Position numbers and translations under genes: made by a program. A stretch of 64,000 nt of DNA from a virus (lineage: Duplodnaviria > Caudoviricetes): IMG/VR virus record IMGVR_UViG_3300028591_000176, positions 1 through 64,000 of that record; one strand, given 5' to 3'. The notes under the pieces were generated by a model, which had not been told where the DNA came from, did no database searches, and saw only the letters and a list, made by a program, of their open reading frames with translations. Below, one piece after another: positions 801 to 53,892 of this stretch. Numbering within the stretch: position 1 is the stretch's first letter; each line of letters starts with the position of its first letter.

Positions 801-1133
801 TTACTTATATCTTATAAAACCAAGTATTGTCTCCAAATCCCAGTCATCGCATATACTTTCTAGGATTTCGTGAGCGTTATCCATAGCCGTTTCGTCGCAA
901 TCAATAATAACGTCAAACTTTTCAAGAATCTCTTCTTTGTCACGGCATCCAATTGCAAAGAGAATGTCAACAAACCTGTCATGATACACTTTCTTTTTCC
1001 ATGCAGCATTAATCTTGCGCACCAACTCTGGGTTGTGACCATTGTACGTGTCCATGATGTCGCTGTAGCTATTATCTTCGATATAGCTTACCAAGTCAAC
1101 AAGATATTCTGGACGAATATCTTTCTCTTCCAT
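801..1133 (-). CDS. Hypothetical acidic protein (110 aa)
   Basis: ORF in the leftward run, stop 1 nt from the next start. Confidence 0.7.
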   Translation of the reverse strand: MEEKDIRPEYLVDLVSYIEDNSYSDIMDTYNGHNPELVRKINAAWKKKVYHDRFVDILFAIGCRDKEEILEKFDVIIDCDETAMDNAHEILESICDDWDLETILGFIRYK

Positions 1134-1170
1134 AATTTTGATTGTTTGATTTATTAATTATATTTATTAA

Positions 1171-1260
1171 TTATAACCACATGAGAAAATAACAGATAGC
1201 CATTACTACCGCCACGTAGATTGTTCCCATGAAATTTTCTTTAAAATCTTTCTTGTTCAT
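1171..1260 (-). CDS. Possible 29-aa single-TM peptide (MNKKDFKENFMGTIYVAVVMAICYFLMWL)
   Basis: Fills the gap between two genes, ATG adjacent to the upstream stop, hydrophobic C-terminal half. Confidence 0.35.
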   Translation of the reverse strand: MNKKDFKENFMGTIYVAVVMAICYFLMWL

Positions 1261-1261
1261 A

Positions 1262-1795
1262 TTAGTCGACGTAATCAAAATAATACTGCATTGCCTTCTC
1301 ATGTTTCGGATGGCTCTCGTTAAACCAGTTAAAGTACAAACATCTTGCGTCATAATACAAGTCGCTGTACATTTCAGCGTACTGACGATTACCTCTTGCC
1401 GAGTGTTCCCAAGCCTTCATATTAAGCACAATAATAATCTCGGCAAAGAACTCGATGTCGTCTCGCCAATTCTGCAAAGCATTGCGGAGGGTACTGGCAA
1501 TTGCCGACATGCCTTCGACAGGCACGCACCATTCAGCCACGCTAAAGTCAGACGTGTACGTTGTCTTGCGCTTGTAGTTTTCACGCAAGTTGGACTCGAA
1601 GTTTCTTTCGCACCACATGCCGTAAACTAGCGCTCCCTGTAAACCGCCGTATTTCTTTGCAAACGGCATCAGCTGCTCACTCAGGTTGTCGTAATTGTGT
1701 GCCTTCACATAAGCACACATTTCGCTCACTTCCTCGTTAAAATCTTTCTTTGTCATAGTTGTAATGGTTTTAAAGTTTAATAAATCCGTTTTCAT
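1262..1795 (-). CDS. Hypothetical phage protein (true start possibly 1756)
   Basis: 177-aa ORF. The TTYTSDFSVAEW...IIVLNMKAWEH pattern resembles a family I recall from gut phages; function unknown. Confidence 0.75.
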   Translation of the reverse strand: MKTDLLNFKTITTMTKKDFNEEVSEMCAYVKAHNYDNLSEQLMPFAKKYGGLQGALVYGMWCERNFESNLRENYKRKTTYTSDFSVAEWCVPVEGMSAIASTLRNALQNWRDDIEFFAEIIIVLNMKAWEHSARGNRQYAEMYSDLYYDARCLYFNWFNESHPKHEKAMQYYFDYVD

Positions 1796-2057
1796 CTAAC
1801 TCGTACCACGATGCCAACAGGTAGTGGTCGTAGCCTTCGTAGTCTTTATCATACGACACGTACTGACAATACGTAGTACCTTTTTTGTCATCGCCATCAT
1901 CTTGCACCCATTCACGGAAGCCCATAAGACTGTTTGTTAAATCAAGCACAGGCCGCTGGCCGTTAAACTCCATGAAATTAAACGGGAAGTCCTGCGAATA
2001 AACAACCATCATGTCGCTGCCGACATGTGCCGTGATTGAAAAATTAAACTTTGCCAT
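1770..2057 (-). CDS. Hypothetical protein (95 aa)
   Basis: ORF in the leftward run with an A-rich start context. Confidence 0.7.
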   Translation of the reverse strand: MAKFNFSITAHVGSDMMVVYSQDFPFNFMEFNGQRPVLDLTNSLMGFREWVQDDGDDKKGTTYCQYVSYDKDYEGYDHYLLASWYELDENGFIKL

Positions 2058-2083
2058 AATACTTAATGTTTTGTGTGTTAATA

Positions 2084-2521
2084 CTAGATGTCTATACTAC
2101 CCCAAAAGCCTTCAATGGTATCAGTCTTGTCTTCAAACAAAACTTCAATACAAGTCAAGAAATAGCTGGACGCTTCCATGTTCGCCTCATAATCTTCTAT
2201 TTGATACGTTGCCGAACGAAAGAAGCTAATGAGTGAATAGCGAAGAGTGTCCAGAGACATCCTTTCTAAACCCATGTAAATGCGCCTGCCAAGAGCCTTG
2301 TACTCGTCAAAAACATCATCGTAGCTTTCGTTGTCTTTTTCAAAGTCCTCATCGTATTGCTCAGACCACGAATACACATTGAGACAGTAAATGTGGCTAA
2401 ATTGCTTTTTTACGTTAGCGCAAAACGATGGGCTACCGCCATACCTTGAACATGATGCCACTCCGCACACAAGACCTGCGGCCTTTATGTACTCTTTCTT
2501 ACCAATAATAAAGCTACTCAT
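2084..2521 (-). CDS. Hypothetical protein (145 aa)
   Basis: ORF in the leftward run with an A-rich start context. Confidence 0.75.
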   Translation of the reverse strand: MSSFIIGKKEYIKAAGLVCGVASCSRYGGSPSFCANVKKQFSHIYCLNVYSWSEQYDEDFEKDNESYDDVFDEYKALGRRIYMGLERMSLDTLRYSLISFFRSATYQIEDYEANMEASSYFLTCIEVLFEDKTDTIEGFWGSIDI

Positions 2522-2530
2522 AACGTTTAT

Positions 2531-2707
2531 TTAAGATTTAAATTCGACACTTTGCAAGTCGATACTTGCAATTTCGTCACATGGGAAATCATCGTCACCA
2601 ATGGATGCACAGGCATCCATCAGGGCTGCGTCTTCGTTAAAGCCTTCACCAACCTGCGTGAAGGCTGTGCCACTCACTAGAGTGACAAGAAATAAATACT
2701 TTTTCAT
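2531..2707 (-). CDS. Hypothetical small acidic protein (58 aa, MKKYLFLVTLVSG...)
   Basis: Hand-translated ORF below the track cut-off that fills the gap in the leftward run. Confidence 0.5.
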   Translation of the reverse strand: MKKYLFLVTLVSGTAFTQVGEGFNEDAALMDACASIGDDDFPCDEIASIDLQSVEFKS

Positions 2708-2833
2708 TGCTGTAATGGTTTAAGTGATTAATAAATTTTGTTCCCCGCAACAATGTCAGTTTGCGTTGACGGAATCTTACCGCATCGCAGGGATGCGCGG
2801 CGCGCGGGCGGGTGTCGATAGTGGCCACCGCCC

Positions 2834-3244
2834 TTATCCTAGCCATTTAAGCCACGCCTCACACTGGTCGACACGCTCGCGCAGCATCTTCTGGTCATCG
2901 AACTCATACCCGCGCTTAATACGTGCACGCAGGCTGGCAACCTCGCGCTCAAAATACGTGCGTGCGCTTCTCTCGGCTTTCTTAATATCGCTATCTGACA
3001 CACACTTGTCGATAATATTCTGGCGCACAAGTTCGCCAGTCCAGCTATCTTTGTCACTCCAAACAAAGCCCAGCCTGTCGCCATGTACGTCGTCAATCAT
3101 TCCGTAATGGATGCCGACCTTGACAAACATTCCAATGTATTGCTCCAGCCCTTTGTCGTTTTTCACAGCGGGCGACGGTGTACTGATTGTACCTTCCTGT
3201 AAACCCAACATTTCAAGTTCGCTCTGATTTAACTTTCTTTCCAT
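2834..3244 (-). CDS. Hypothetical protein (136 aa)
   Basis: ORF with AGGAGG 8 nt upstream of the ATG (plus-strand CCTCCT 3253-3258). Confidence 0.75.
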   Translation of the reverse strand: MERKLNQSELEMLGLQEGTISTPSPAVKNDKGLEQYIGMFVKVGIHYGMIDDVHGDRLGFVWSDKDSWTGELVRQNIIDKCVSDSDIKKAERSARTYFEREVASLRARIKRGYEFDDQKMLRERVDQCEAWLKWLG

Positions 3245-3266
3245 ATCTTTTGCCTCCTATGCTTTG

Positions 3267-4061
3267 TTATTTTTTAATACACGTTGTAAATAATTTCTCT
3301 AACTCCTCGACAGTTTTGATGTCCTTTGCGTCATAAAAGCTTAAAGCGACATCGTACTTTACGTTGTTTTCCTTCAGCCAAGAGCGCAATGCGTATCCTT
3401 GCAACGAGCCGCCAACATCGCTCCAGCCACACATTTCGCGGAAACGAAAACCAAAACGTCTGTTCCACGCTGCACTTAACAGCGGAAACGCCATCTTTAG
3501 CACGTCAATATGCTGACCGCTATCCTTTAGCTTTGTAATAAAGCCCGTCCTCTTTGAGCCGCTGTCGGCTACATTGCTAGCGTACAGGTTTACCCTGTAG
3601 CCCTTGCGTTCGAGGCTCATGATACAAGACACAACCCTTGCGCTGACCTTTGCAATCTCTTCTGCCGTCTCGTCTCCGTATGTGTTGCACCCGTATATAA
3701 CGGTCAGGACTTTCTGCGCCACTTTCTTCTCTTCAACCCAAAGCATATTGTTTGGTATGCCTGTAAGAAAGTTAGGTACATGCGGTGCAAAGCCTGCAAC
3801 ACGCGTCACGATGCGCTTCTGTACACCCGTGCTCGGCATGTGTATGTCTAGCTTGTCGCTTCCGCGTAACATCTTTGCCAGCTCATCGTCACCTTTGATG
3901 ATACGCTCCTCGGCCTCCTTGTACGTCTTCGTGCCGTACCACTCTTCGTTATACTCTGAATTGCTATTATAACCGCCCTTTTCGCTCCCAAGGTGAGCGA
4001 CCATCTCCGCAATGCTATTATAGCACACAAAGTCACTTTTTTTCATTTTTCTGCTTTTCAT
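3267..4061 (-). CDS. vWA-like partner of the adjacent AAA+ ATPase (putative)
   Basis: Directly downstream of a MoxR-type ATPase. Alternating beta/alpha pattern (VLTVIYGCN, YRVNLYA) with at best a degenerate MIDAS motif. Confidence 0.55.
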   Translation of the reverse strand: MKSRKMKKSDFVCYNSIAEMVAHLGSEKGGYNSNSEYNEEWYGTKTYKEAEERIIKGDDELAKMLRGSDKLDIHMPSTGVQKRIVTRVAGFAPHVPNFLTGIPNNMLWVEEKKVAQKVLTVIYGCNTYGDETAEEIAKVSARVVSCIMSLERKGYRVNLYASNVADSGSKRTGFITKLKDSGQHIDVLKMAFPLLSAAWNRRFGFRFREMCGWSDVGGSLQGYALRSWLKENNVKYDVALSFYDAKDIKTVEELEKLFTTCIKK

Positions 4062-4114: not shown

Positions 4115-5593
4115 TTACCACACCTCCTCAGTACGCATCTGCTCAATGCAAGCCTTCATCGCCCGTGCCCACCTGTTTGACTTGTTTTCTAGATGCTCAT
4201 ACAGGTTTAGAGCATCGTCAACGGTCTTCTCCTGCAAGACCGAACCACGCAGCAGATGCGCATCATCGTTGCGGCAGCACTCCTGTAATGTGGCGAGGTC
4301 ACTGGCCTGCCTATAGCTGAATAGCTGACTGATGCCCGTCTTGTTAGCTGCCCTGCGGAGGTCTTCACCAAAGTTCACGATTTCCTCGTCACCGCCCGTT
4401 ATGCTTAGGAACACGTTACGGTCGTACGTCACCGTCTCAAAGAAGAAACGATTCTTAAAGCTAGTGTCCTGCATCTGTCGTGCCACGTACTCCATCGTCG
4501 CACCTGTCATGCGTGTGTTGCCTGCGGCAATAACACGGAAGTTCGGATGAGCGTTGACGTTGCCGATGACAGGAAAATCAAACCGCTTGTTTGCTATCGC
4601 GTTGTTTAACACGACAAGAGCCTCGGGTGCACTTGCGTCCACCTCATCCAAGAAGAACACACCTCCGTTCGCGAATGCCTTGTAAAATGCCGTCTCCACA
4701 AACTTGCCTGCGGCATCGCCGTAGCCTTTCAATTCGTAGGCGAATATCGCCTGCGACGTCTCGTAATAGTCCAAACCTAATGCCTCGGCAATCTGCTTTG
4801 CAGTGTACGACTTGCCGCTGCCAGCTGGTCCGTACATGTACAACGGCTTGCCAGCGTTGACAAGGTTGCAGAAGATGTCAAAATTCTTGTTGACAACGCC
4901 CTCGACCTTCACGATGCCTGCGGCAGACTTCACCTCTATGACACGACATTCCTGTTTGATGCCTGCAAAATACTCCTTCACGATGCTACGTACCTGCTCC
5001 TCGTTGACGGATGCCTCCTGCTGCTCAACTACAACAGGCTTAACAAGCCCTGCGATTTTCATGACAGCCTCAAACATGTCTGCGCCCATGCTGCCGTACT
5101 TTTCGGCTAACTCACGGCGAATGACGTCAGGCTCAATAAACTCAGACGCGATTTCTGCTGCGCTGCCCAAGACCTCCCGCTTGACGGGGTGGCTTTCCTG
5201 CTCCAGCTGCTCCCACACCTTTTCAGCCGTGACGTTTTCCACCTTGGCCTGCTCGGTCACCTCATTAACGACCTCCTCGACCTTAATTACCTCGACAGGC
5301 TCGCCGCCTAATTCGCGCACTTCGACCTGTGGGTTGATGACAGGCTCCTGCTTGGGCTTGCGTGCCTTCTTCGTGCCCTTTGCGCCCTTTGTGGCGAGAC
5401 TCCAGCCTTCCGCCAGCGTATGCATGTCGCGCCCGTCCTCAGACGTGCCTGCTGGCAAGACCATCGGGTACGACTCGTAAAAACGCTTGCCCTTATTCGG
5501 CCTGCGTGCCTCGCTGACAATCTGCCCGTTTTCTACTACAACGTTCAATACGTTGACAACTTCTCCCGTTGAAAGATTCTGTACTTTAATCAT
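4115..5593 (-). CDS. MoxR/CbbQ-like (AAA_5) AAA+ ATPase with long N-terminal extension
   Basis: Walker A GPAGSGKS, Walker B FFLDEVD, sensor region VIAAGNT, and a NRF arginine-finger-like motif. Acidic Glu/Val-rich linker in the N-terminal half. Confidence 0.85.
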   Translation of the reverse strand: MIKVQNLSTGEVVNVLNVVVENGQIVSEARRPNKGKRFYESYPMVLPAGTSEDGRDMHTLAEGWSLATKGAKGTKKARKPKQEPVINPQVEVRELGGEPVEVIKVEEVVNEVTEQAKVENVTAEKVWEQLEQESHPVKREVLGSAAEIASEFIEPDVIRRELAEKYGSMGADMFEAVMKIAGLVKPVVVEQQEASVNEEQVRSIVKEYFAGIKQECRVIEVKSAAGIVKVEGVVNKNFDIFCNLVNAGKPLYMYGPAGSGKSYTAKQIAEALGLDYYETSQAIFAYELKGYGDAAGKFVETAFYKAFANGGVFFLDEVDASAPEALVVLNNAIANKRFDFPVIGNVNAHPNFRVIAAGNTRMTGATMEYVARQMQDTSFKNRFFFETVTYDRNVFLSITGGDEEIVNFGEDLRRAANKTGISQLFSYRQASDLATLQECCRNDDAHLLRGSVLQEKTVDDALNLYEHLENKSNRWARAMKACIEQMRTEEVW

Positions 5594-5687
5594 GATAAAG
5601 TCCTCCGTTTGTTTAAATGATTAATGAAAAATGATTATTGTTTGTTACGTTTGCACAGACCGCTCGCTTTGCGCCCGCTAAAAGAGT

Positions 5688-12901: not shown

Positions 12902-14989
12902 ATGGATGTAAACGAAATAAGAAAGTGGCACGATACGTTCAAACGCGAAGATGAATTGTTTGAAATACGTATATTGGGTGACAGAACTTGGAGCGGCTAT
13001 TTTTACGATGTAGAGAGCGCGATAAAGGCACTTGAACCATTTGATAATGCCAATATTTATTATTCTGTCAACGAAGTCAAAAAAGCATGCGCAAGCCGCG
13101 ACCAATTCAATTGCTTTAGACAGGTTAAAGGAACTGCTACAAGCAAGCAGGATATAGCGCACCGTTGGTGGTTGCCTATTGATGTGGATTGTGAGCGTCC
13201 AAGCGGCGTTAGCTCAACGGATGCAGAAAAAGCAAAGGCACACAAGAAGGCACAGGACGTATTTGTTTTTTTGCGTGACAATGGCTTTAGCACGCCAGTC
13301 GTTTGCGACTCATCAAGCGGCTATCATTTGCTTTATCCTATTGATATGGATAACACACAAGAAAGCGAAGATGTTATTAAGGCTTTTCTTGAAATCCTTG
13401 CGAACAACTTTACTGATGAGAGCGTTAAAATAGACACAGTTTTGCATGACGCAAACAGGATACTTCGTTTGTCTGGAACTTTCGGTCGCAAAGGGCGTTC
13501 AAGCGAAGAACGTCCGCATCGTCTTGCAAAGATTCTTGCAGTACCTAAAGACTTTCGTCGCATGACAGCTTCTCAGATAGAGAGTTTTAACGAGAAGTAT
13601 TCGATAAAGATAGAGCAACCTCAACGGCGGGCTTATAACGCAAACGAGGCTTGCCCTGAATTTAATTTGCGCGATTTTATTCAAAAATATGGTATAGAGA
13701 TTGCGAAAGAAGTCCCAATTAGCGGAGGAGGAACGAAATACGTTCTAGCCCATTGCCCATTTGATGAAGGACATAAAGCTCCTGATTCTGCTTTGTTTGA
13801 ACTTCCTAACGGTGCTATTGCTTTTAAATGCTATCATAATTCTTGTTCGCAATATGATTGGCGTGCGTTTAGGCTGCATTTTGACCCCCACGCATACGAC
13901 CATGAAAGTGAGCCACGGCAATACGCGAAACAAATACCGCAGCCGCGCCAATATGCCGTTCAAAAGCCTAAATATGTGATAAAGGACGAGTCGCCAGAGT
14001 TAGGCGGCAAGTGGCTTTCTTTGTCCGACATAAAAAAGGTAGACCTTTCGCAGATAGAGACCGTGAAGACAGGGTTTGCCGAACTTGACAGGGCTATCGT
14101 CGGACTGAACATGGCCGAGGTCACGTTGCTTAGTGGCAGCAATAGCTCTGGAAAATCTTCATGGCTAAATACCCTTATCCTTAATGTCATCAATCAGGGT
14201 ACAAAGGTCGCGCTGTGGTCAGGCGAGCTGCCAGACTATATTCTGAAAACGTGGATACAGATGGTTGCTGCTGGCAAACGCAACTTGCGCCTGTCTCAAT
14301 TTAAGGAAGGCAAATATTATGTGCCTGATAACATTGCTGCGCACATCGACCAATGGCTTGATGGGAAATTCTTCCTGTACAACAATGAATATGGCAACAC
14401 ATGGGAGCAGATATTCCATGACATGAATGAATTGCTAAAACTTGGAGTTAAATTGTTTGTACTTGACAACCTTTTTAGCCTTAATATCGACCTGCTTGAA
14501 GGTGACAGGAATAACAAGCAGAAAGAACTTATATTGCAGATTAAGGAGTTTGCGAAAAAGAACAAGGTACATATCATTCTGGTTGCGCATCCTAGAAAGG
14601 CGATGACATTCCTGCGCAAGAATGACATTAGTGGTACTAGCGACTTAACTAATGCCGTCGATGATGTGTTCATCATACACCGCGTTAACAATGACTTTTT
14701 GCGCACTGGCGAGGAGTTCTTTGGCAAAGGTTCTATGAGCCGCTTTGAAAGCTATGGAAATGTGGTCGAGGTTGCAAAGAACCGTATGTATGGCGTTGTA
14801 GACCTTATGGTTGGGCTGCACTATGAAATAGAAAGCAGGCGGTTTAAGAACAGCATCGATGAAGATTTAAGATACGGGTGGGAGGCAGAGCCGCAGCAAC
14901 AATCCTTTGAATACAACGAACCAGCACCGCAGGAAAGCGATGATGGCCTGCCTTTTGCTGCCTTTACTGATAGCAATGCCCCATTTTAG
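12902..14989 (+). CDS. Primase-helicase fusion: AEP-like primase, Cys/His linker, SF4 (DnaB/T7 gp4-like) helicase
   Basis: DVD and SSSGYHLLY primase motifs, HCPF...CYHNSC, Walker A GSNSSGKS, Walker B FVLDNL, LVAHPRK, DISG, VAKNR. Confidence 0.85.
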   Translation: MDVNEIRKWHDTFKREDELFEIRILGDRTWSGYFYDVESAIKALEPFDNANIYYSVNEVKKACASRDQFNCFRQVKGTATSKQDIAHRWWLPIDVDCERPSGVSSTDAEKAKAHKKAQDVFVFLRDNGFSTPVVCDSSSGYHLLYPIDMDNTQESEDVIKAFLEILANNFTDESVKIDTVLHDANRILRLSGTFGRKGRSSEERPHRLAKILAVPKDFRRMTASQIESFNEKYSIKIEQPQRRAYNANEACPEFNLRDFIQKYGIEIAKEVPISGGGTKYVLAHCPFDEGHKAPDSALFELPNGAIAFKCYHNSCSQYDWRAFRLHFDPHAYDHESEPRQYAKQIPQPRQYAVQKPKYVIKDESPELGGKWLSLSDIKKVDLSQIETVKTGFAELDRAIVGLNMAEVTLLSGSNSSGKSSWLNTLILNVINQGTKVALWSGELPDYILKTWIQMVAAGKRNLRLSQFKEGKYYVPDNIAAHIDQWLDGKFFLYNNEYGNTWEQIFHDMNELLKLGVKLFVLDNLFSLNIDLLEGDRNNKQKELILQIKEFAKKNKVHIILVAHPRKAMTFLRKNDISGTSDLTNAVDDVFIIHRVNNDFLRTGEEFFGKGSMSRFESYGNVVEVAKNRMYGVVDLMVGLHYEIESRRFKNSIDEDLRYGWEAEPQQQSFEYNEPAPQESDDGLPFAAFTDSNAPF

Positions 14990-30644: not shown

Positions 30645-32420
30645 ATGGCCAGAAAGAGAAACGACATAGTATTATCCCCTTTGGAGGATGGCAACCAAAA
30701 GTACGCCATTCGCTCCAACGCAGATATTGTCGTGCTTACTGGCGGTACTGGCGGCGGAAAATCATACGCTTTGTATTATGCTCCAATGGAATATCTTGCC
30801 ATGAACGACAATGCGAAAATTGTCTGCTTTATGCGTAACGTTTCGGATTTCTGGGGGGCAGGAAAAGTGAATGATACGCTGAAAACAATGTACCCCTTGA
30901 TAGACCGCTCTGTAAAGAAACAGCCGCATGACCCAATCGGTGAGATAATACGAAACCAGACGGACATGGGTTTGAAGCTTTACAATGGCAGCGAGATAAA
31001 GTTTCAGCAGCTTGACAACGAAAGCCCTATCATCATAGATAAAATCGCCAAAGGTTTACAGGCTAAAAAGCTAATCTTTGACGAGAGCAACAAGTTTCTT
31101 TGGAGAACAATCACAGCCTTTATGCCTCGCTTGCGTAGTGATTCAAGCGGCAAAGCACAGATATTCCTTGCGCAAAACCCTGAACGTGAATGTTTTCTTC
31201 GCAAACTATGCGGGAAAGGAGAACATGGCGGCGGGTGGATAAATGATGACGGCACTGTTGATAAGTCAATGGATGGTGTCGTTATGTATTTCAATATGCA
31301 AGAGGGTGACGTGGAAAAGACCTACTTTGGTCGCACAAAGCGCGAGGTGTACGAAAAATGCAAAGACCATATTGATTCTCTTGTTGCACAAGACCCCGAT
31401 ATGACCTACGAAGATTTTATTCTTTCGATGGTGTTCTACACGTTCAGCGTCCGTGATAACAAAAGGATGCTGGCAAAGAACAAGGGATATAGGGGACTTG
31501 CTGCAAACGCTTCAACGGCAGCATCGGCATACAATGAGAACTGGAACTATAGCATCACGGACGACGAGAACAAAGATGAAGACCTGACAAATGTTCAGCT
31601 TAGTCAGATGGATGTCGAGCGCATGTTCCGTCCGATGGAAGTTCCGCGTGACTCTGTTGTTGTAAAGCGTTTTATGACGATGGATATGGCTACAACAGGC
31701 TTTGATAATCTCACACTAAAGTATTGGGAGTTATGGTCTCATTACGGCTTTATTTGTAGGGACATAAAGTATTCCACACAGAATAGCAACCGTGAAGCAG
31801 TAATGATGGCAATACATTTCCGCGACAAGCACAACTTGCAGGAGCGTGACATGATTCTTGATGTTCAGGGATTCGGATTCCTGCGCGACTGTTTCCCACG
31901 CGCAATATTTGTTTCTGGTGCTGGGCAAACCTCAAATAGGGGAAAGGCACAGTTCCGCACAATGAAAGACGAGGCTGGCCATGTGGCACTTGAAATGATT
32001 CAAAGCGGGCTTATACACTACGAGCCGCGCCTTGCTCAAATGCACTATGACCACAAGAACATGAAACGCGAAGGAGGCACGACGATACTGCGCCACATGA
32101 TTTTTGAAAGCAGAATATTCCAATTCGGGAAGACACCCAATGGGCGCATCCTTATGATGGATAAGGAAAAGATGAAAACCCTATTGAAAGGAATGTCACC
32201 CGACCTTATGGATAACATTATACTGCTTTGTGCGGGAACAATCTACGACTGCCATAGAATGCTGCGAGAGGATGCTGGCGTGATGAAGAAGAAAGCTGAA
32301 TCGAGCGACATGCTCGCGCTGTTAAACGTCAATGGCGAACAAAATGTTGATACGCGTATTAATCGCGTGAAGAAGATAAGAAACGCAACTGACATACTTA
32401 AAGTACTTAGTACAATATGA
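30645..32420 (+). CDS. terL: Terminase large subunit
   Basis: Walker A GGTGGGKS, Walker B LIFDES, C-terminal RNase H-like acidic residues (MDMATTGFD, SPDLMD); followed by portal. Confidence 0.88.
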   Translation: MARKRNDIVLSPLEDGNQKYAIRSNADIVVLTGGTGGGKSYALYYAPMEYLAMNDNAKIVCFMRNVSDFWGAGKVNDTLKTMYPLIDRSVKKQPHDPIGEIIRNQTDMGLKLYNGSEIKFQQLDNESPIIIDKIAKGLQAKKLIFDESNKFLWRTITAFMPRLRSDSSGKAQIFLAQNPERECFLRKLCGKGEHGGGWINDDGTVDKSMDGVVMYFNMQEGDVEKTYFGRTKREVYEKCKDHIDSLVAQDPDMTYEDFILSMVFYTFSVRDNKRMLAKNKGYRGLAANASTAASAYNENWNYSITDDENKDEDLTNVQLSQMDVERMFRPMEVPRDSVVVKRFMTMDMATTGFDNLTLKYWELWSHYGFICRDIKYSTQNSNREAVMMAIHFRDKHNLQERDMILDVQGFGFLRDCFPRAIFVSGAGQTSNRGKAQFRTMKDEAGHVALEMIQSGLIHYEPRLAQMHYDHKNMKREGGTTILRHMIFESRIFQFGKTPNGRILMMDKEKMKTLLKGMSPDLMDNIILLCAGTIYDCHRMLREDAGVMKKKAESSDMLALLNVNGEQNVDTRINRVKKIRNATDILKVLSTI

Positions 32421-33953: not shown

Positions 33954-34337
33954 ATGGGGTGGATGGAATTTATATTATCAATATCAACGCTTCTGCTTGG
34001 CACGGGATGGTTGTTCACTTATCGCGCCTATCGTAGAAAGGCAAATGGTGAGGCCACACAAGCAGAAGCGGACGGATGGAAATCACAACAGGAGGTGTAT
34101 CAAACAACAATAAAAGACCTCAAAGAGTCTTGCGAATACATCCGTAATGACAGGAATCTTCTTAGGGAAGAGAACACAAAGCTGCGTGCCGAAAATGACA
34201 TGCTGCGTGCAAAGATTAACAAGTTTGAGGACATAATTGCCGAGCTACGCGAAAAAGTGGCAAGGCAAGGCCGTCAGCTAGATGCAATTACTGGTAAACG
34301 CAAAAAGGAACAAAATGCAGATATTGAAAAAAGGTAG
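33954..34337 (+). CDS. Lysis-cassette membrane protein (N-terminal TM plus coiled coil; holin- or spanin-like)
   Basis: One N-terminal hydrophobic helix, long heptad region, directly upstream of the endolysin. Confidence 0.55.
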   Translation: MGWMEFILSISTLLLGTGWLFTYRAYRRKANGEATQAEADGWKSQQEVYQTTIKDLKESCEYIRNDRNLLREENTKLRAENDMLRAKINKFEDIIAELREKVARQGRQLDAITGKRKKEQNADIEKR

Positions 34338-34938
34338 CCGTGGCGAAGACGTAAAGAAGTTGCAGTTTGCGCTCAATCTTTTTGCCGATGGAATCTTTGG
34401 CGAACTCACGGAAGAGGGTGTTCGTACGTTCCAACGTGAGAACGGTCTTAAAGAGGATGGTATCGTGGGTGAAAAGACTTGGGATAAGATATTCAACAGA
34501 CCCGCTGGAACATCTTACCCAAAGTCACGTCGTACAATAAAAGAAATTATTGTGCATTGCAGCGCGACACCAGAAGGCAAGGACTTTACCGTTTCTGACA
34601 TTACGAATTGGCACAAGGCGCGTGGTTTCACCACGATAGGCTATCACTACGTAGTGTATCGTGACGGCAGCGTTCATAAAGGGCGCAATGTAAACATTAG
34701 CGGTGCGCACTGCACGGGGCACAATGCACATTCAATTGGCATTTGCTACATAGGTGGGTGTGCCGCTGATGGCAAAACCGCAAAAGATACGCGCACAAAC
34801 GCGCAGAGAGCCGCCCTAGAGATTACTTTACGCAAGCTGCGTACACTTTATCCAACGGCAAAGATTTATGGGCACAGGGACTTTGCAAATAAGGAATGCC
34901 CTAGCTTTGATGCAACAAAGGAATATCGGTCGATATGA
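34315..34938 (+). CDS. Endolysin: PG-binding domain plus N-acetylmuramoyl-L-alanine amidase (T7 lysozyme-like)
   Basis: LKKGSRGEDVKKLQ...DGIFG/DGIVG PG-binding repeats; IIVHCSAT, IGYHY, SIGICYIGG, GHRDF, CPSF Zn-amidase motifs. ATG 34315 is the likely start. Confidence 0.93.
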   Translation: MQILKKGSRGEDVKKLQFALNLFADGIFGELTEEGVRTFQRENGLKEDGIVGEKTWDKIFNRPAGTSYPKSRRTIKEIIVHCSATPEGKDFTVSDITNWHKARGFTTIGYHYVVYRDGSVHKGRNVNISGAHCTGHNAHSIGICYIGGCAADGKTAKDTRTNAQRAALEITLRKLRTLYPTAKIYGHRDFANKECPSFDATKEYRSI

Positions 34939-35387
34939 TGGGCGCAGAAGAATACAAGAAGATAAAAGACGAAGGCGAGAAATATCGCCTTGGGTGTGGC
35001 ACTATGATGTTCATCATCATTGCCATGTGCTTTTTGCTTTCTTCTTGCGCCACAAAATCAAAGATAGAATATGTTGACAGGGAAGTTGTAAAGTACGTAC
35101 ACTCCGTGCAACACGACACATTAATAAATAATGTCCATGACAGCATCTATCATACAATATTCCAAAAAGGCGATACTGTCTATGATACCAAGTATGTGGA
35201 GAAGACGGTATATAAGGACAGGATTGTTCACCATACCGACACGGTGTTGCGCGACTCGATACACAAAGAGATAAAAGAAGTGACCGTAGTAAAGAAAGAG
35301 ACACCCAAATGGTGTTATCTATCGCTGCTATGCGCTCCTTTCTTGATTTTTATATATAAAATTAAAAATAAGATATGGAAAAAATAA
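34935..35387 (+). CDS. Lipoprotein with C-terminal TM (unimolecular-spanin-like)
   Basis: Lipobox-like LLSSC after a hydrophobic stretch; C-terminal hydrophobic segment followed by a basic tail. Confidence 0.6.
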   Translation: MMGAEEYKKIKDEGEKYRLGCGTMMFIIIAMCFLLSSCATKSKIEYVDREVVKYVHSVQHDTLINNVHDSIYHTIFQKGDTVYDTKYVEKTVYKDRIVHHTDTVLRDSIHKEIKEVTVVKKETPKWCYLSLLCAPFLIFIYKIKNKIWKK

Positions 35388-48579: not shown

Positions 48580-49971
48580 ATGGCAACACTACAAGCAGGC
48601 TTAAAGCCTCTCTTTAACAAGACATACAACAGGTACTCAAAAGACCTGAAGGACAAGTACATCATCACCACGGACAACAGCGGGAACATCACTGGCAAGG
48701 TCAGCGTAGGCTCGCTGCTCTCCAAGGCGAAGTACTCTGGCGGGTATATCGCCGATGGTGTCATCGTGACGCAGAACCCGCAGGCAGGGGATATTCTCTT
48801 CCTTGATGAGGAGGGCATCCGTGTATTCGTCAAGAATGCCAACGACGAGCTTATCAAGGCTAACCTGCCCGAAAGCTGGACGCTGGTGGGATATGTGTTC
48901 CACCGTGGCAAGACGGACATCATCACGGGCGAGACCGATGACCTGAATCAGGTGTGGGTGATAAACAAGGACGGTGCTAACTATAAGTACATTGATGTGT
49001 GGCAATTTGCCATCACTGCTATTGCTTCGACAAGCATCACGATAACGCTGCGGTTGAGTACGGACTACACCGTTGGTACTGCCGTGCCTATTACGCTTTC
49101 ATCTACCGCTCTTAACGCTACCACAGCCTCGGAAATTAGCACGGCTATCAGGGCAAAGGCGGCAGAGGTGAGCAGCGCAGGCACTTGGTGGGCATACTAC
49201 GACGAGGCGAACGATAGAATCATTGTGCAGAATGATGTGAATAATGACTATCGCCAGTATCAGGTAAGCGGAACGGGGTGTACTATTGCTCTTTCCGTAT
49301 GGGATGACATGCCAGCAAACTCGACGAGCGGAGTAAGGCAAGATAACGGCTCTGGAGGTGTAATGAACGCTACGCGCGGCACTACCTACTATTCAACCAA
49401 CGGGACTGCCGATACAAGCCTCGGTCTCACCAATGGACTGATGAACAAGGCGAGCTTTGACAACTCTGCCAATGCTGACGTGATAGCGTACAAGAACGGC
49501 GGCAAGACATACGATGATTATATCCGCGAGTATAAGATGCTGGCTCTGCCGCAGCCTCGCAGACAGGGATTGTTTACGCTACCTGTAGCACAGCAGCTAT
49601 CGTTGAAATATGCTCTCAGCGTCGCTCCTACCTATGCGGGTGGCGAGAAATACAAGTTCCCTGCCTTGAATGCTGGGTACAACGTAAGCTACGGTGGCGA
49701 CCTTGACTTCGGCGACTGGTGGACTCCAGGCGTTCAGGAGGCTCTGTACTTTATGCGTGACATAGAGGACGGCGACAATGCTTTCACCAAACTGGCGGCA
49801 AGTGCGACGAAGATGGGCACGCTGTCGTTTGCCAATAACGTCTACCGATGGTTAGCCCAGAGGTACCACGCCAACAGCAGTTGGATTTTCTATGGCGACG
49901 GCGGCTACCTCGGCAGCGGCTACGTAGCTTACAGCCTTCGCTGTCAGGCGGTCACCTGCCTCTACCTGTAA
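48580..49971 (+). CDS. Receptor-binding protein with DGR-type C-terminal variable region (C-type-lectin-like fold, putative)
   Basis: Ends WLAQRYHANSSWIFYGDGGYLGSGYVAYSLRCQAVT, matching the W..QRY....W.F.G..G.L......R.QAV pattern I recall for Bacteroidota DGR targets. Confidence 0.7.
   Translation: MATLQAGLKPLFNKTYNRYSKDLKDKYIITTDNSGNITGKVSVGSLLSKAKYSGGYIADGVIVTQNPQAGDILFLDEEGIRVFVKNANDELIKANLPESWTLVGYVFHRGKTDIITGETDDLNQVWVINKDGANYKYIDVWQFAITAIASTSITITLRLSTDYTVGTAVPITLSSTALNATTASEISTAIRAKAAEVSSAGTWWAYYDEANDRIIVQNDVNNDYRQYQVSGTGCTIALSVWDDMPANSTSGVRQDNGSGGVMNATRGTTYYSTNGTADTSLGLTNGLMNKASFDNSANADVIAYKNGGKTYDDYIREYKMLALPQPRRQGLFTLPVAQQLSLKYALSVAPTYAGGEKYKFPALNAGYNVSYGGDLDFGDWWTPGVQEALYFMRDIEDGDNAFTKLAASATKMGTLSFANNVYRWLAQRYHANSSWIFYGDGGYLGSGYVAYSLRCQAVTCLYL
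49849..49971 (+). other. Putative DGR variable repeat (VR)
   Basis: Variable-looking positions are nearly all NNC/NNT codons (TAT, GAC, GGC, TAC, AGC, GCT, CTT), as expected from AAC/AAT template codons. No TR copy found in the window. Confidence 0.6.
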
Positions 49972-49998: not shown

Positions 49999-50040
49999 GT
50001 TGTAACGTGCTAACTTTTAGTGCGTTACAACTTTGTTTAT
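49999..50040 (+). terminator. Hairpin/terminator after the DGR target gene
   Basis: GTTGTAACG...CGTTACAAC stem extended by G:U pairs, followed by a T-rich tail. Confidence 0.65.
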
Positions 50041-50059
50041 GGACTTGAAAAAGTCCTCT

Positions 50060-50090
50060 ATTGTTTAATCCTTTTTAGGTTGTATCTTTG
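50060..50090 (+). promoter_or_regulatory. Promoter of the CCCE operon
   Basis: ATTG, 19-nt spacer, TATCTTTG (50083-50090); followed by hairpin ACGACAA...TTGTCGT at 50093-50118. Confidence 0.7.
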
Positions 50091-50152
50091 CAACGACAAA
50101 TGATGCGCATCTTGTCGTAAACAGAGTAATAACAACTTTAAAAAGGATTTTT

Positions 50153-51091
50153 ATGAGTGAGATTTATCAATTGCCAGACACTTCTGGCAACAACAACGGT
50201 GGCCTAGGCAACATTCCTTTCTCTATACCCATTGGTGGTTTTGGAATGGGCGGCGGCTTGTTTGGCGGCAACTACGGAATGAATGGGATTGCTGACCTAT
50301 TTGGACTGGCTATCATTGCTTCAATGTTCGGCTGGAACAATGGCGGATTTGGCAATGGCGGCTTTGGAGGAAATGGTTCAGGCGCAGCTTTTTTGGCTAA
50401 TCAGCTCTCGAACGACTCTGGGCGTGAACTCATTATGAACGCTATCACCAATCAGGGCGAGGCATCACGTACGGCCATTCAGACATTAAGCACTATGCTT
50501 GGTCAGGATTTCAATCTTGTCAATGGTGCTGTGACTAATGTGCAGAATGCATTGCAGACTCTTGCTTTGCAGCAGGCTGTGAGCGTGCCTCAGATTATCA
50601 ACTCTATCCAGTCGGGTGATGCAAGCATCATCAGTAGCTTCGAGAAGTGTTGTTGCGAGAACAAGCTCCTTGTCACACAACAGGGCTACGAGTCGCAGAT
50701 TGCAACCTTGAACCAAACCAACCAGCTTGGTTCGCAGGCAGACCGCAACACCAACGCTTTGCTTAATGCCATCAACGCCCAGACCGTTGCCATGAACGAC
50801 CAGTTCTGTGCAGCCCGCGAGCGCGACATGCAGGCAAAGATTGATACGCAGTCCGACATCATCACTCAGCTGCGTGGTCGGATTGACAATGCCAACCAGA
50901 CGGCTCAGATTACGGGATATGTCAATTCCCTGATTGCTCCCTTGCAGGCAAAGGTTACGGAGATTGCCGACAAGCAGCTTCCTACTGTTCCTGTTCAGTG
51001 GCCGCAGATTCAGGCCGTGAACACCACGCCTTACATGGGTGGTTGGAATGGTTTCTACGGCAACGGCTTTGGTAATAACATCGTGTTTTAA
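50153..51091 (+). CDS. Gly/Asn-rich protein with hydrophobic segment, CCCE motif and Gln/Asn-rich coiled coil; function unknown
   Basis: GGFGMGGGLFGG, a TM-like LFGLAIIASMFGW, KCCCENK, heptads, aromatic-Gly C-terminal tail. Confidence 0.85.
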   Translation: MSEIYQLPDTSGNNNGGLGNIPFSIPIGGFGMGGGLFGGNYGMNGIADLFGLAIIASMFGWNNGGFGNGGFGGNGSGAAFLANQLSNDSGRELIMNAITNQGEASRTAIQTLSTMLGQDFNLVNGAVTNVQNALQTLALQQAVSVPQIINSIQSGDASIISSFEKCCCENKLLVTQQGYESQIATLNQTNQLGSQADRNTNALLNAINAQTVAMNDQFCAARERDMQAKIDTQSDIITQLRGRIDNANQTAQITGYVNSLIAPLQAKVTEIADKQLPTVPVQWPQIQAVNTTPYMGGWNGFYGNGFGNNIVF

Positions 51092-51115
51092 GTAGGCGAA
51101 AGGAGGGTACGAAGT

Positions 51116-51451
51116 ATGTGTTTTAACAACATTACAACGAACGCGGGTGGTATCGCCTACCTACCTTCAACCAATGTTACCGTAGGTACTGATGCAGTTG
51201 ATATTGCACTAGGCTTCCGTCGTATTCAGCCAGTAGGCTATTTCACCGTTCGCCTGACCGATGCGATACCAGCAGGCACTACGACAACGCTGCCTATTAC
51301 GCTTACGCTCAATGGAACGACACGCGCCCTGACTCTGTTTGACGGCACACCTGTTACCGTTGCGGAGCTTATCGGTGGCACGGGAGCATTCCTTGTGTTC
51401 AACAATCGTTTCGATGGCATTCTTCAACTGATGTCACGTACTACGGTATAA
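51116..51451 (+). CDS. Small beta-sandwich-like protein of the CCCE operon
   Basis: Thr/Val/Gly-rich alternating pattern; AGGAGG 9 nt upstream. Confidence 0.8.
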   Translation: MCFNNITTNAGGIAYLPSTNVTVGTDAVDIALGFRRIQPVGYFTVRLTDAIPAGTTTTLPITLTLNGTTRALTLFDGTPVTVAELIGGTGAFLVFNNRFDGILQLMSRTTV

Positions 51452-51481
51452 GCAAGAGTAATTAACAAGTAAATAGTAACA

Positions 51482-52006
51482 ATGATGGATTTTAATAGTC
51501 TTGGGAACGGCAACCCTTTTTATATCCTTAGACAAGGAGAAAAGCCGATTTTAGAGGTAGGCACGGTAAAGTCAAAGACACAGCCACATGTCAAGTTTCC
51601 AACGCAAACGCCCAACCTTATGACTGGATTGCAGACACAGCAGGTTATTGATGTGACGGCAACCATCAATGGTAAGGATGAGACTTTTATGGATATTCCA
51701 ATAGGAGTTGAAATTGCGCAAAAAGGAAACGTGACATTCAGCGGTAGTCGTGAAGCGATGTTGCAGGCGGTAGATTCAATGCTACAGACTAGCAAGAAAG
51801 CCATCGACCAAGTGCCATATCATAAGACGGTTATTGCAGAAAGCGAGAAGATGATGGAGGTGCTTAACCCGCAATATGCGGAAAACAAGAAACAGGCACG
51901 CACCATCAGCGACCTTGAACGCCGACAGGCTGACACTGACAAGAAGCTTGATGCAATATTGGGTATCCTGCAAAAGCTGGATTCGCCCGCCACAAGTACC
52001 GTTTAG
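51482..52006 (+). CDS. Hypothetical protein of the CCCE operon (beta N-terminus, coiled-coil C-terminus)
   Basis: 174-aa ORF in the operon. Confidence 0.8.
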   Translation: MMDFNSLGNGNPFYILRQGEKPILEVGTVKSKTQPHVKFPTQTPNLMTGLQTQQVIDVTATINGKDETFMDIPIGVEIAQKGNVTFSGSREAMLQAVDSMLQTSKKAIDQVPYHKTVIAESEKMMEVLNPQYAENKKQARTISDLERRQADTDKKLDAILGILQKLDSPATSTV

Positions 52007-52035
52007 TCCATTAAACTATAGAAAGGAACAATCAA

Positions 52036-52278
52036 ATGGGATGGATTTTTATAGACAAGGATGACGAGCAGAGCCAGCAGAAGATGCGGCAGCAGATGCG
52101 TCGTAACATGCGTGGCGGTGGCTATAGTAGCGGTGGCTATAGCGGTGATGGTAATTATCGTGATGGCTATCGTCAGGGCTACAAGCACGGCTGGGAGGAC
52201 AAGTCCGACGAATGGATGGATAACGATGAGGAAATGGATTCCCGTCGCCGTCGTGACAGCCGTGGAAGATACATGTAA
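52036..52278 (+). CDS. Small low-complexity protein ending RRRRDSRGRYM
   Basis: Q/R/M-rich, GGY repeats, GYRQGYKHG, acidic stretch, then a basic RDSRGRY tail. Confidence 0.75.
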   Translation: MGWIFIDKDDEQSQQKMRQQMRRNMRGGGYSSGGYSGDGNYRDGYRQGYKHGWEDKSDEWMDNDEEMDSRRRRDSRGRYM

Positions 52279-52363
52279 AAATGGAACAGAAAGCGAAGGG
52301 ATTGGTGGATATACTCTGCCAATCCTTTCCAATGTTTAAAACATTAAAATAAATTGGAAAGTT

Positions 52364-52762
52364 ATGAAGCAATATATATCCGAAGGAAGGGCAATGTACG
52401 AAGACCAAAATCATGGTCTTTTCAGCAAGAGACTTGCAGAGTGGGCTATTGGTAAGATGCGTATGCAGGACGCATCCAATGGCGCGTTGAAAAAGATAGC
52501 TGCAAGAAAGCTTGATGATGTCAAGGAAGTGTTGAAAGAGAACAAGGTCGAGCTGCCAGAAGAGTTTTGCTATACGGCATGGTATTTGTTCAACATGGCT
52601 ATTGCCGACTACCCGAAGACATTAAAGACTGACGAGCAGCGTGCAATGTTCGTTGAGGAAACGTTGTGCGACCCTGATGGTATGCCAGAGAATGTTCTTG
52701 ACTGCTTTGTCGTTAAGATGTGCAATGCTGGCGTTCCGATATATTGGGAGTCATTTTTGTAA
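52364..52762 (+). CDS. Helical hypothetical protein of the CCCE operon
   Basis: 132-aa ORF; FSKRLAEWAIGKM, NMAIADY and DPDG motifs. Confidence 0.8.
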   Translation: MKQYISEGRAMYEDQNHGLFSKRLAEWAIGKMRMQDASNGALKKIAARKLDDVKEVLKENKVELPEEFCYTAWYLFNMAIADYPKTLKTDEQRAMFVEETLCDPDGMPENVLDCFVVKMCNAGVPIYWESFL

Positions 52763-52782
52763 TAGCAATACTCTTTAGGCTT

Positions 52783-53172
52783 ATGAAAACAGCGTACATA
52801 GACGTTGACGGTTACTGGGGTATAGCAATATGCTATGATTACGATGTTTCTAACCACGAAGATGAACACACTCTATGGGGGTATATGCGTTCATTTGGTA
52901 TGAAAGAAAGAAGTATCAATAAAGCGTTAAACATTCTCTCGAATTACAACACAGGAATGTGCGTATCAAACAATGATGTGCGGATGAGTGGCATATTTAT
53001 AAGCAAGGCAACAAGTCCGAGTGAATGGTGGTCATCGTGCTTGCATGAACTTAGACATTCAGCACAAGCAATCATTGATTACTACGGCGCTGATTGGAAT
53101 GAAGATGATGCTTATCTAACAGGCTTTCTTACTAAACGTGCTGTTGAGATATTGGGAGAACCTTGCAGATAG
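52783..53172 (+). CDS. HExxH-motif protein (putative metallopeptidase)
   Basis: LHELRH followed by EDDAYLTGF; ATG at 52783 preferred. Confidence 0.65.
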   Translation: MKTAYIDVDGYWGIAICYDYDVSNHEDEHTLWGYMRSFGMKERSINKALNILSNYNTGMCVSNNDVRMSGIFISKATSPSEWWSSCLHELRHSAQAIIDYYGADWNEDDAYLTGFLTKRAVEILGEPCR

Positions 53173-53195
53173 AGCCTCACTGTTGAGGTTCTATC
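53168..53195. terminator. Probable bidirectional terminator between convergent genes
   Basis: GATAGAGCCTCA...TGAGGTTCTATC stem followed by a T-run. Confidence 0.7.
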
Positions 53196-53797
53196 TTTTC
53201 AAGATACCAAAGAACCCCTTTTCCGTAATGACTTTTACTTCTCGTTGCTGCACTAATGCTCCCGCAATTTATGCCTGTTTCTTTTGACGCTTCCAAAATA
53301 GAATCAAAAGATTTAATAAAGTTTTTGTTTAAGTCATACATATAAACAGCATGAGGGCTATTTACTGTTTTGTTTTTGACAAGCGTTGCGTGCCTCTTAA
53401 TCTTTGTTTGTTCTAACCTTATTCTGTTTAATTGTCTTTCTCTCGTTATGGGGTTATTGCTGTTTTCCTTTGGAGTACACCACCTAAGATTACTTGATTT
53501 GTTGTTTTTGGGATTTCCATCAATGTGGTCAACTTGAATATCATTGTCTCCTTTCTCACAAAAACACATTGCAACAAGTCTATGAACTGCAATTTGTTTT
53601 CTTGTGTTATTTCGACAAAGAAGCACAAAAGGATAACCTTTTGGGTCACAAGCAAGTGCAAGAACCCTTTCTTTCGCATGTACATGTGTTCCTTTTTTAG
53701 AATAATACCATCTATCCAAAGATTTTACACGCCCAAGGTTACTAACTTGATAAAAGCCTTCCCATCCTTTGATGTCTTTCCAAATTTCTTGTTCCAT
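53177..53797 (-). mobile_element. Free-standing NUMOD4-HNH-NUMOD1 homing endonuclease
   Basis: EIWKDIKGWEGFYQVSNLGRVKS (NUMOD4), VDHIDGNPKNNKSSNLRW (HNH), VYMYDL...FDSILEASKETG (NUMOD1-like). Start at ATG 53797. Confidence 0.9.
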
Positions 53798-53892
53798 TAC
53801 TATTAAAAACGGAAATGCCCCGAAAGAGCCACCACGCATCTAACGGGACAAATCCATTTAGTCGTATATATTCGCTTAGTGGTGGATAAGCG
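53798..53892 (-). ncRNA. Candidate kissing-loop 5' leader of the HNH gene
   Basis: Minus strand: CGCTTA-tCCACCAC-TAAGCG hairpin, then a long hairpin whose loop contains GTGGTGG. Confidence 0.55.

Follow-up and report, generated by a model that had tools for sequence, protein, structure and literature searches.

Phage T5 carries, as T5.077–T5.079, a small self-contained unit with an annotated promoter and terminator, whose first protein, T5.077 (PHROG 8119), combines a CCC triplet and a helical region rich in Q and N with a hydrophobic helix that stands between Gly-rich segments. Classical morons comprise one or two genes and are expressed from the prophage. Here we describe a cassette that has features of both, found in a 64,000-nucleotide stretch of DNA (the whole of which we call the window) from the IMG/VR virus record IMGVR_UViG_3300028591_000176 (76,969 bp, ~97% complete). 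It consists of six tightly spaced genes, g1 to g6, all on the plus strand at 50153–53172 of the window, and is confirmed as a real, self-contained unit of co-oriented genes: all the open reading frames (ORFs), a −7 promoter box and the bounding hairpins were found, as an earlier, sequence-only reading of the window had claimed for a six-gene operon with its own promoter and terminator. That reading had also seen no likeness to a standard virion, lysis or replication protein, and our searches agree, having matched the cassette to no characterised family of virion, lysis, replication or defence proteins. The account that we favour, and hold tentatively, is that the cassette encodes a membrane-anchored assembly that would act on the envelope of the infected cell late in infection, accessory to the canonical lysis genes.

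A survey of gene neighbourhoods had been set as the test of whether the six genes form a conserved unit. We searched 80 related viral loci from IMG/VR with iterated hidden Markov models (HMMs) of the six proteins, and g1, g2, g3, g5 and g6 were found in the same order on one strand in 64 of them. The remaining 16 loci lack at least one of g2, g3, g5 and g6, several of them being cut by a contig end. The g4 HMM matches in 46 of the 64 ordered loci, and a small ORF lies in the gap between g3 and g5 in 17 of the other 18; most of the 14 gap ORFs that were listed start with MGxI and end much like RRxRDSRGRYM, with an acidic helix and then a stretch rich in RG/Y in between. The order is also kept in 10 of 13 contigs from rumen metagenome-assembled genomes (MAGs), whose bins are mostly Bacteroidales (Prevotellaceae, Paludibacteraceae, Muribaculaceae and Bacteroidaceae). 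Two tiny non-Bacteroidales contigs, a 4.9-kb 'Treponema' and a 2.9-kb 'Eubacteriales' one, are probably mis-binned. Recurrence in phages of both Bacteroidota and Bacillota had been expected; it stood for Bacteroidales, but a spread in Bacillota was not seen, and the g1 family does reach T5-like coliphages.

Few viruses of the human gut are more abundant than crAss-like phages (PMC6235969), and several of these phages carry the cassette in some form. Phage cr271_1 (Intestiviridae) has g1, g2, g3, g5 and g6 in the cassette order, and a small ORF is annotated where g4 would stand. Partial sets were found in cr272_1 (Suoliviridae) and cr116_1 (Steigviridae), and the Loutivirinae have a reduced, reordered form that consists of a DUF7841 protein, g1, g2 and a g3-like gene. 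The cassette order is kept in the cultured Bacteroides uniformis phage C3_41T2LP (g2 and g4 positions by annotation only), where the genes lie among recombination genes, inside the replication genes. In B. thetaiotaomicron BFG-119, a 61.9-kb circular 'plasmid' (NZ_CP103284.1) has a g1 match followed by genes sized like g2–g6, the order being judged from the g1 match and the annotated gene sizes only, and the cassette there adjoins an integrase. This replicon looks like a temperate phage genome, with a BACON protein, a holin, a GH108 lysozyme and an integrase.

The flanks of the cassette differ widely among phages. It usually stands right after large tail or fibre genes, and lysis genes (holin or endolysin) adjoin it in cr53_1, cr4_1, cr116_1 and cr272_1. 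None of the cassette genes was found in crAss001, while cr116_1, from the same subfamily, has cassette genes between its lysis and capsid genes. Because crAss001 is without it, the related cr116_1 is with it and the flanks are variable, the cassette is, to judge from this distribution, an accessory, horizontally mobile unit of Bacteroidales phages; and since the unit is kept intact while moving between unrelated phages, it must do something useful. The g1 family alone comprises >6,800 clusters at 90% identity in metagenomes, or 481 at 50% identity. A blastn search of the operon against 50,697 phage records gave no match.

The lead protein, g1, is built from a Gly/Asn-rich N-terminal tail, a hydrophobic helix (residues 46–58), a Gly-rich linker, a bundle (78–154), a long helix (157–274) and a Gly/aromatic tail ending in F. 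An alignment of 63 diverse homologues showed a conserved N-terminal peptide, Gly/Asn-rich tracts round the hydrophobic helix, the helical region, and a Gly/aromatic tail that usually has W/F at its end. The CCC triplet (166–168) is kept almost throughout these homologues, with Cys in 95% at C166, 98% at C167 and 100% at C168. In the AlphaFold model (mean predicted local distance difference test score, pLDDT, of 68, and 85–95 at residues 190–270), the triplet sits near the base of the continuous helix 157–274, whose ~118 residues would span ~17–18 nm if straight. As modelled, g1 is shown to be a rod with a Gly-flanked hydrophobic helix, and the Gly/Asn/Phe-rich ends, one hydrophobic helix, CCC and long helix that had been read from the window were borne out in homologues and model alike. 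The hydrophobic helix has a mean Kyte-Doolittle value of 1.54 over 17 residues and is present in ~59 of the 63 homologues; it is the only one in g1, which has no C-terminal transmembrane (TM) anchor. The rod itself is rich in Q, N, T and A, poor in charge, and contains up to 14 Cys, whereas the helices of g3 are charged.

A Foldseek search of the PDB with the g1 model returned no match at E ≤0.001 and none below E 1. The g1 profile gave marginal matches to the HA2 and S2 fusion proteins among PDB sequences (E 7e-4 to 0.02), over the Gly-rich and heptad region; we read this as a likeness of composition and heptads rather than as membership of the class I fusion proteins. GenBank crAss records annotate g1 homologues as 'spike protein/glycoprotein' or 'viral fiber', probably because of these marginal coiled-coil matches. 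Weak Pfam matches in the 63 homologues, to Baculo_PEP_C (14/63, best E 2e-4) and NPV_P10 (11/63, best E 0.026), were sub-threshold and stood among many other coiled-coil families, and we regard them as coiled-coil noise. Likewise, a 1731-aa protein (P0246) with 13 'matches' to g1 was set aside as S/T/N-rich repeat noise without the CCC. T5.077 was matched to the g1 alignment by hhalign at 97.2% probability (E 2.9e-11) over only 48 columns, and g1 is distantly related to it.

Directly after g1 there always stands g2, which is small and T/V-rich. Its mean column identity, 60%, is the highest of five alignments, although in identity to the window copies across the same loci g1, g2 and g3 are much alike (medians 66–68%). 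The sole conserved Cys of g2 lies at residue 2–4 (M-G/N/S-C-F/N-N-I-T-T-N), and 32 of 33 g2 sequences are without any further Cys. At the other end of the cassette, ~11 relatives have an optional seventh gene after g6 (~115 aa, e.g. at 13764–14111 in the related locus L005), which the window is without. Its product has a charged, cytoplasmic-looking helical N-terminal domain and then a TM helix closely like that of g1. This TM helix has a K-rich N-flank, which implies that its N-terminus is in the cytoplasm (N-in), and by likeness suggests the same for g1.

The products of g3 to g6 look soluble, and no signal peptide or TM helix was found in any of g2–g6. For g3, the predicted model (pLDDT 85.6) has an SH3/KOW/Tudor-like β-barrel (~1–88), a helical hairpin and a long charged helix, which bears out the β-structure plus coiled coil that had been proposed for it. 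The model had no Foldseek match in the PDB at E ≤0.001; the best VIA-align score (Z 6.5) was to EF-P domain I, a likeness to a generic SH3/KOW/Tudor barrel, and a BFVD search returned uncharacterised proteins only, the top named ones being from crAss-like phages. Disorder and a basic tail had been claimed for g4, and we find an RG/Y-rich, disordered peptide with a conserved GYRxGYxHGWED motif and a conserved C-terminal RRxRDSRGRYM. The g5 protein falls in DUF7841 (41 bits against a cutoff of 25.2, E 2.6e-10), a domain that forms the N-terminal half of cr53_1 gp67, annotated 'sigma factor/ubiquitin-like'. The PHROGs that hold g1, g2, g3 and g5 are all of unknown function.

In g6, which had been called peptidase-like for its HExxH, residues H88, E89, H92 and E107 are invariant in 32 sequences, with the HExxH motif at 88–92, E107 as the third-ligand Glu and an AYLxG motif. 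The protein is a minimal zincin-type metallopeptidase with its active site intact, and the proposed role as a maturation factor seems reasonable. Among Pfam families, DUF6782, SprT-like and Peptidase_M78 match 3–4 of the 32 members with a best E of 0.01–0.04, none at threshold, and the window g6 scores 13.1 bits with DUF6782 against a cutoff of 27. A small paralogue of the g6 zincin (HExxH … E … AYLxG) is found as a second copy in many relatives, on the minus strand up to ~2 kb after g6 (L008, L010, L016, L019, L036, L052, L055, L058, L063 and L065), and in cr116_1 (L002) a g6 paralogue (5276–5623, VOG3488) stands just upstream of g1.

The cassette has its own transcription signals. In the window the g1 ATG is preceded, at a distance of 70 nt, by a −7 box of the Bacteroidota type (TAnnTTTG), and 18 nt upstream of this box there is a −33-like element, ATTG. 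Of 76 related loci, 57 have the same TAnnTTTG in the 160 nt that precede g1, compared with ~3.8 expected, and its distance from the ATG is constant (median 69 nt). The preceding gene is closed by hairpins with a 15-bp stem (49999–50031) and a 6-bp stem (50041–50056), each with a T-run. The hairpin claimed for the 5′ leader is present in the window but is not conserved: shuffled sequences fold as well as the leaders of 55 relatives do (median z 0.36), and the hairpin was rejected as a conserved element. Between g4 and g5, a further hairpin is likely an attenuator that splits the unit 4+2; a hairpin with a T-run was found upstream of g5 in 17 of 68 relatives versus 7 of 180 control windows. The hairpin after g6 is a bidirectional terminator common to the cassette and a convergent HNH endonuclease gene, and terminator-like sites follow g6 in 13 of 66 relatives versus 7 of 180 control windows.

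Codon usage adds timing and amount. The G+C content and the A content at third codon positions (GC3 and A3) of g1 and g4 are 0.58–0.59 and 0.08–0.10 (g1: 0.58 and 0.10), and those of the putative capsid gene, a 434-aa ORF called capsid by position only and without a PHROG match, are 0.61 and 0.09. With a GC3 of 0.36 and an A3 of 0.30, g6 is like weakly expressed genes. Taken with the g4/g5 hairpin, these values suggest that g1–g4 are made in bulk and little is made of g5 and g6. In the TAG-recoded phage cr4_1 (L089, NC_055893, 4791–6790), reading TAG as Q opens the frames of both g1 and the g3-like gene: the former contains a single TAG, at a residue that is Q in the family consensus, and the latter contains seven. 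Since, according to a review, crAss-like phages recode TAG mostly in late structural and lysis genes (PMC10136315), the cassette belongs to the recoded, late gene set of cr4_1. Capsid-like codon usage and this recoding together make it most likely that the cassette is expressed late and strongly. In the window it has the late-gene orientation and borders replication genes.

In the account that we favour, the six genes would make up one autonomous, mobile, late and strongly expressed accessory cassette that builds a membrane-attached multiprotein assembly, which would be neither an enzyme pathway nor a core part of the virion. Here g1 would oligomerise, anchored in the cytoplasmic membrane, and its CCC and the N-terminal Cys of g2 could couple the two proteins, by disulfide or through a shared metal, because the single conserved N-terminal Cys of g2 suggests pairing with the CCC. 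The g3–g5 proteins would be soluble partners, and g6, made in small amounts, would process one component. At the close of the infection cycle the assembly would act on the envelope of the host, which it may hold or condition for egress or lysis, or it may protect the infected cell.

This proposal draws on four observations: the cassette travels among phages whose virions are unrelated; crAss001 is without it but a relative has it; the seventh gene encodes a TM helix that resembles that of g1; and lysis genes adjoin the cassette in four crAss lineages. Its portability across podo-, sipho- and temperate phages, together with the T5.077 relative in coliphages, fits a target that is host-directed and not virion-specific. 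Several points weigh on the other side. K and R are scarce on both flanks of the g1 hydrophobic helix (0.2 versus 0.56 within 15 residues), the positive-inside rule gives no clear orientation for g1, and, with flanks nearly uncharged, the segment may not be a classical anchor. As g2–g6 have no export signals, a periplasmic g1 rod would leave g2, its tightest partner, in another compartment. A lysis set that looks complete already lies 15 kb from the cassette, late and abundant expression fits a virion component equally well, and no homology fixes any function of the cassette.

The likeliest alternative is an accessory virion module, in which g1–g3 would be a dispensable capsid or tail decoration, a fibre or an ejected cargo, g4 an abundant basic internal protein and g6 a maturation protease. 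Such a module would suit the late-gene orientation and usual place after large tail or fibre genes, the capsid-like codons of g1 and g4, and the recoding of the cr4_1 genes as late genes are recoded. The Q/N/T/A-rich, charge-poor rod is also like phage fibre stalks and unlike the charged helices of g3, and depositors have labelled homologues 'viral fiber' or 'spike'. However, these labels go back to marginal coiled-coil matches, and crAss001, whose virion has reportedly been solved, is without the cassette genes that its same-subfamily relative carries. The cassette occurs in phages of unrelated virion types, standing among recombination genes in C3_41T2LP, and a Gly-flanked hydrophobic helix with a paralogous TM helix in the seventh gene suits a cell-membrane protein better. 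On balance we consider a virion module unlikely.

The membrane could also be used from the other side. In this alternative g1 might be a membrane-tethered cytoplasmic scaffold (N-out, C-in), whose rods, with g3, g4 and g5, would organise phage DNA or assembly at the membrane, much as the phi29 proteins p16.7 and p1 do. This would explain partners that are all without export signals, and it agrees with a g1 helix that is followed by slightly more K/R than precede it (22 sequences versus 8), with a g3 barrel that resembles cytoplasmic KOW/Tudor modules, with the basic RG-rich tail of g4, and with the place of the cassette, next to replication genes in the window and within them in C3_41T2LP. Cytoplasmic coiled coils do not, however, usually have the Q/N/T-rich make-up of the rod, with its up to 14 Cys; the seventh gene has a homologous TM helix whose K-rich N-flank implies the opposite orientation; and no DNA-binding domain was detected in Pfam/NCBIfam-type family searches of the six proteins. 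We regard a cytoplasmic scaffold as distinctly unlikely.

Another possible function is that of a true spanin-type device, in which g1, set in the inner membrane, would reach across the periplasm and, with its aromatic/Gly tail, would engage the outer membrane and fuse or disrupt it at lysis. The N-proximal anchor, long coiled coil and conserved Cys recall inner-membrane spanins (i-spanins), the helix of ~17–18 nm plus the bundle is of periplasmic scale, the marginal profile matches of g1 are to the fusion proteins HA2 and S2, and the neighbours in cr53_1, cr4_1, cr116_1 and cr272_1 are holin or endolysin genes. The window phage, though, has its large terminase, portal and lysis genes at 30.6–35.4 kb, and the lysis set there includes an Rz-like/holin-like gene with a TM helix and coiled coil (33954–34337) and an amidase (34282–34938). 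Right after the amidase, a 150-aa ORF (34935–35387, plus strand) has an internal Met, a lipobox (LSSC, read by eye), a C-terminal TM helix and a basic end, a layout that would be that of a unimolecular spanin (u-spanin), with no PHROG or Pfam match. With holin-like, amidase and spanin-like genes of its own elsewhere, the phage does not have the cassette as its lysis set. No lipobox ORF was found in any frame of 50153–53172, and a lipobox pattern run over ~30000–54000 matched only a 49-aa minus-strand ORF (31004–31153), so that no lipoprotein partner was seen in or near the operon. The cassette is moreover accessory and not universal, and a spanin would leave five further conserved genes unexplained. 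We give a spanin-type device little credence.

Similarly small is the chance that the cassette serves superinfection exclusion or another host-surface 'moron' function, expressed outside the late programme. Its autonomous host-type promoter and terminator, its patchy distribution and its integrase neighbour in the temperate B. thetaiotaomicron phage would be expected of such a function, but TAG recoding and capsid-like codons argue for late bulk expression, which is the wrong timing, and six conserved genes are many for exclusion. In PADLOC no family matches any of the six proteins at E ≤0.1, and an anti-phage defence system was rejected on the same count. The sequence-only reading had proposed a self-assembling structure, of which a structural role is plausible, given the g1 rod and the capsid-like codons of g1 and g4, but nothing specific to an occlusion body, matrix, pore or condensate was found. 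That last set (a disulfide-crosslinked matrix outside the cell or a body of the occlusion type, either of them protective, a pore, or a condensate with nucleic acid) has scarcely any chance: the low-complexity Gly/Asn/aromatic and RG/Y regions of g1 and g4, which are predicted to be abundant, the conserved cysteines and the sub-threshold Baculo_PEP_C matches in 14 of 63 homologues might speak for it, but the PEP/P10 matches are coiled-coil noise (best E 2e-4, no listed member at the curated cutoff), no structural or contextual sign of occlusion was found, and a matrix is indistinguishable from any other assembly in the present data.

Wider searches gave little else. NCBIfam had no match for the six proteins, single-sequence and profile searches of PDB sequences with all families gave nothing significant except the marginal g1 matches to HA2/S2, and the ESM Atlas returned unnamed viral clusters only. 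No paper was found on T5.077 or C3_41T2LP, and the crAss review PMC10136315 has nothing on the cassette. The genes are already deposited, as hypothetical or mis-annotated, and their families are known only as 'unknown' PHROGs and a DUF. Because no characterised system fits, we rate the cassette as far from known kinds. Its parts in the window are collected in Table 1.

Table 1. Features of the six-gene cassette and its boundaries (window coordinates).
Feature	Coordinates	Strand	Description
Upstream boundary	49999..50056	+	two terminator-like hairpins closing the preceding 463-aa gene; stems and T-runs
Bacteroidota-type promoter	50061..50090	+	−7 box TATCTTTG at 50083-50090, read from sequence
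5′ leader hairpin	50093..50118	+	arms ACGACAA / TTGTCGT; read in window sequence
g1	50153..51091	+	312 aa; PHROG 16490
g2	51116..51451	+	111 aa; PHROG 31654
g3	51482..52006	+	174 aa; PHROG 28898
g4	52036..52278	+	80 aa; disordered RG/Y-rich peptide
Internal hairpin g4/g5	52293..52331	+	−24 kcal/mol
g5	52364..52762	+	132 aa; Pfam DUF7841, PHROG 38431
g6	52783..53172	+	129 aa from ATG; alternative start GTG at 52720
Terminator hairpin and T-run after g6	~53167..53200		−22.6 kcal/mol

The genes round the cassette have features of their own. A convergent NUMOD4/HNH homing-endonuclease gene (53177–53839, minus strand) adjoins it in the window, and a NUMOD4/HNH gene is also found beside the cassette in C3_41T2LP. 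In the related loci L005–L007 the unit is split by a NUMOD4/HNH gene, called on the opposite strand in the interval from g2 to g3; a gap of ~700 nt between g2 and g3 was seen in L009, L016, L022, L031, L067, L068, L084 and L095. L005–L007, which are close relatives, also have a large terminase (1012–3861) with Hom_end and LAGLIDADG signatures, an intein-like insert; this terminase is 949 aa long, versus 591 aa in the window. Upstream of the cassette, the 463-aa gene (48580–49971, plus strand) has a G+C content of 0.53 and a GC3 of 0.65 and is markedly GC-richer than its neighbours.

Lysis and egress are poorly understood in Bacteroidota, and working out this cassette, which occurs in three crAss-like families, in rumen phages and in a temperate phage of B. 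thetaiotaomicron, could reveal a new late-infection or envelope mechanism there. It would also annotate thousands of 'hypothetical' or mis-annotated genes. The pair of B. uniformis MB20-41 and C3_41T2LP, and phage T5, make the cassette experimentally tractable.

How does the cassette compare with the systems that it most resembles? The T5 unit has a lead protein of like layout and is likewise self-contained, but T5 is without equivalents of g3–g6. T5.078 is Q-rich and, when tried as a relative of g2, showed no relation to it; T5.079 is a 64-aa Cys-rich peptide; and neither is related to any of g2–g6. The CCC of T5.077 is not aligned by hhalign with that of the g1 family, and T5.077–T5.079 are among the T5 early-region genes. 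The minimal zincins (SprT-like, ImmA/IrrE M78, DUF6782 and the 'PolyVal' MPTase) share with g6 the HExxH, a downstream Glu and a length of ~130 aa. Class I fusion proteins (HA2, S2) share with g1 a Gly-rich hydrophobic segment followed by N/Q-rich heptads, but no fold match was found, g1 does not have their second, C-terminal anchor in the membrane, and it is not accompanied by a receptor subunit that bears a signal peptide.

Morons such as lambda bor and lom are alike in having their own promoter and terminator, a patchy spread, with presence or absence among close relatives, and variable sites, and in the integrase neighbour. In contrast to them, the cassette has six co-conserved genes, capsid-like codon usage and the recoding of late genes. 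Spanins (lambda Rz/Rz1 and the u-spanin T1 gp11) are alike in the membrane-anchored coiled coil, conserved Cys and periplasmic length of g1 and in the adjoining lysis genes of several crAss-like phages. Unlike them, the cassette is without a lipobox or a lipoprotein partner, is unrelated in sequence and has five more conserved genes, and in the window the amidase is 15 kb away, with the spanin-like gene beside the endolysin. It is possible, and we put it forward with reserve, that the cassette is an undescribed phage machine: a cysteine-clamped membrane rod (g1–g2) with soluble partners and its own protease, mobile among crAss-like, temperate and other Bacteroidales phages and reduced in T5-like coliphages, which would carry out a late envelope step outside the holin/endolysin/spanin paradigm.

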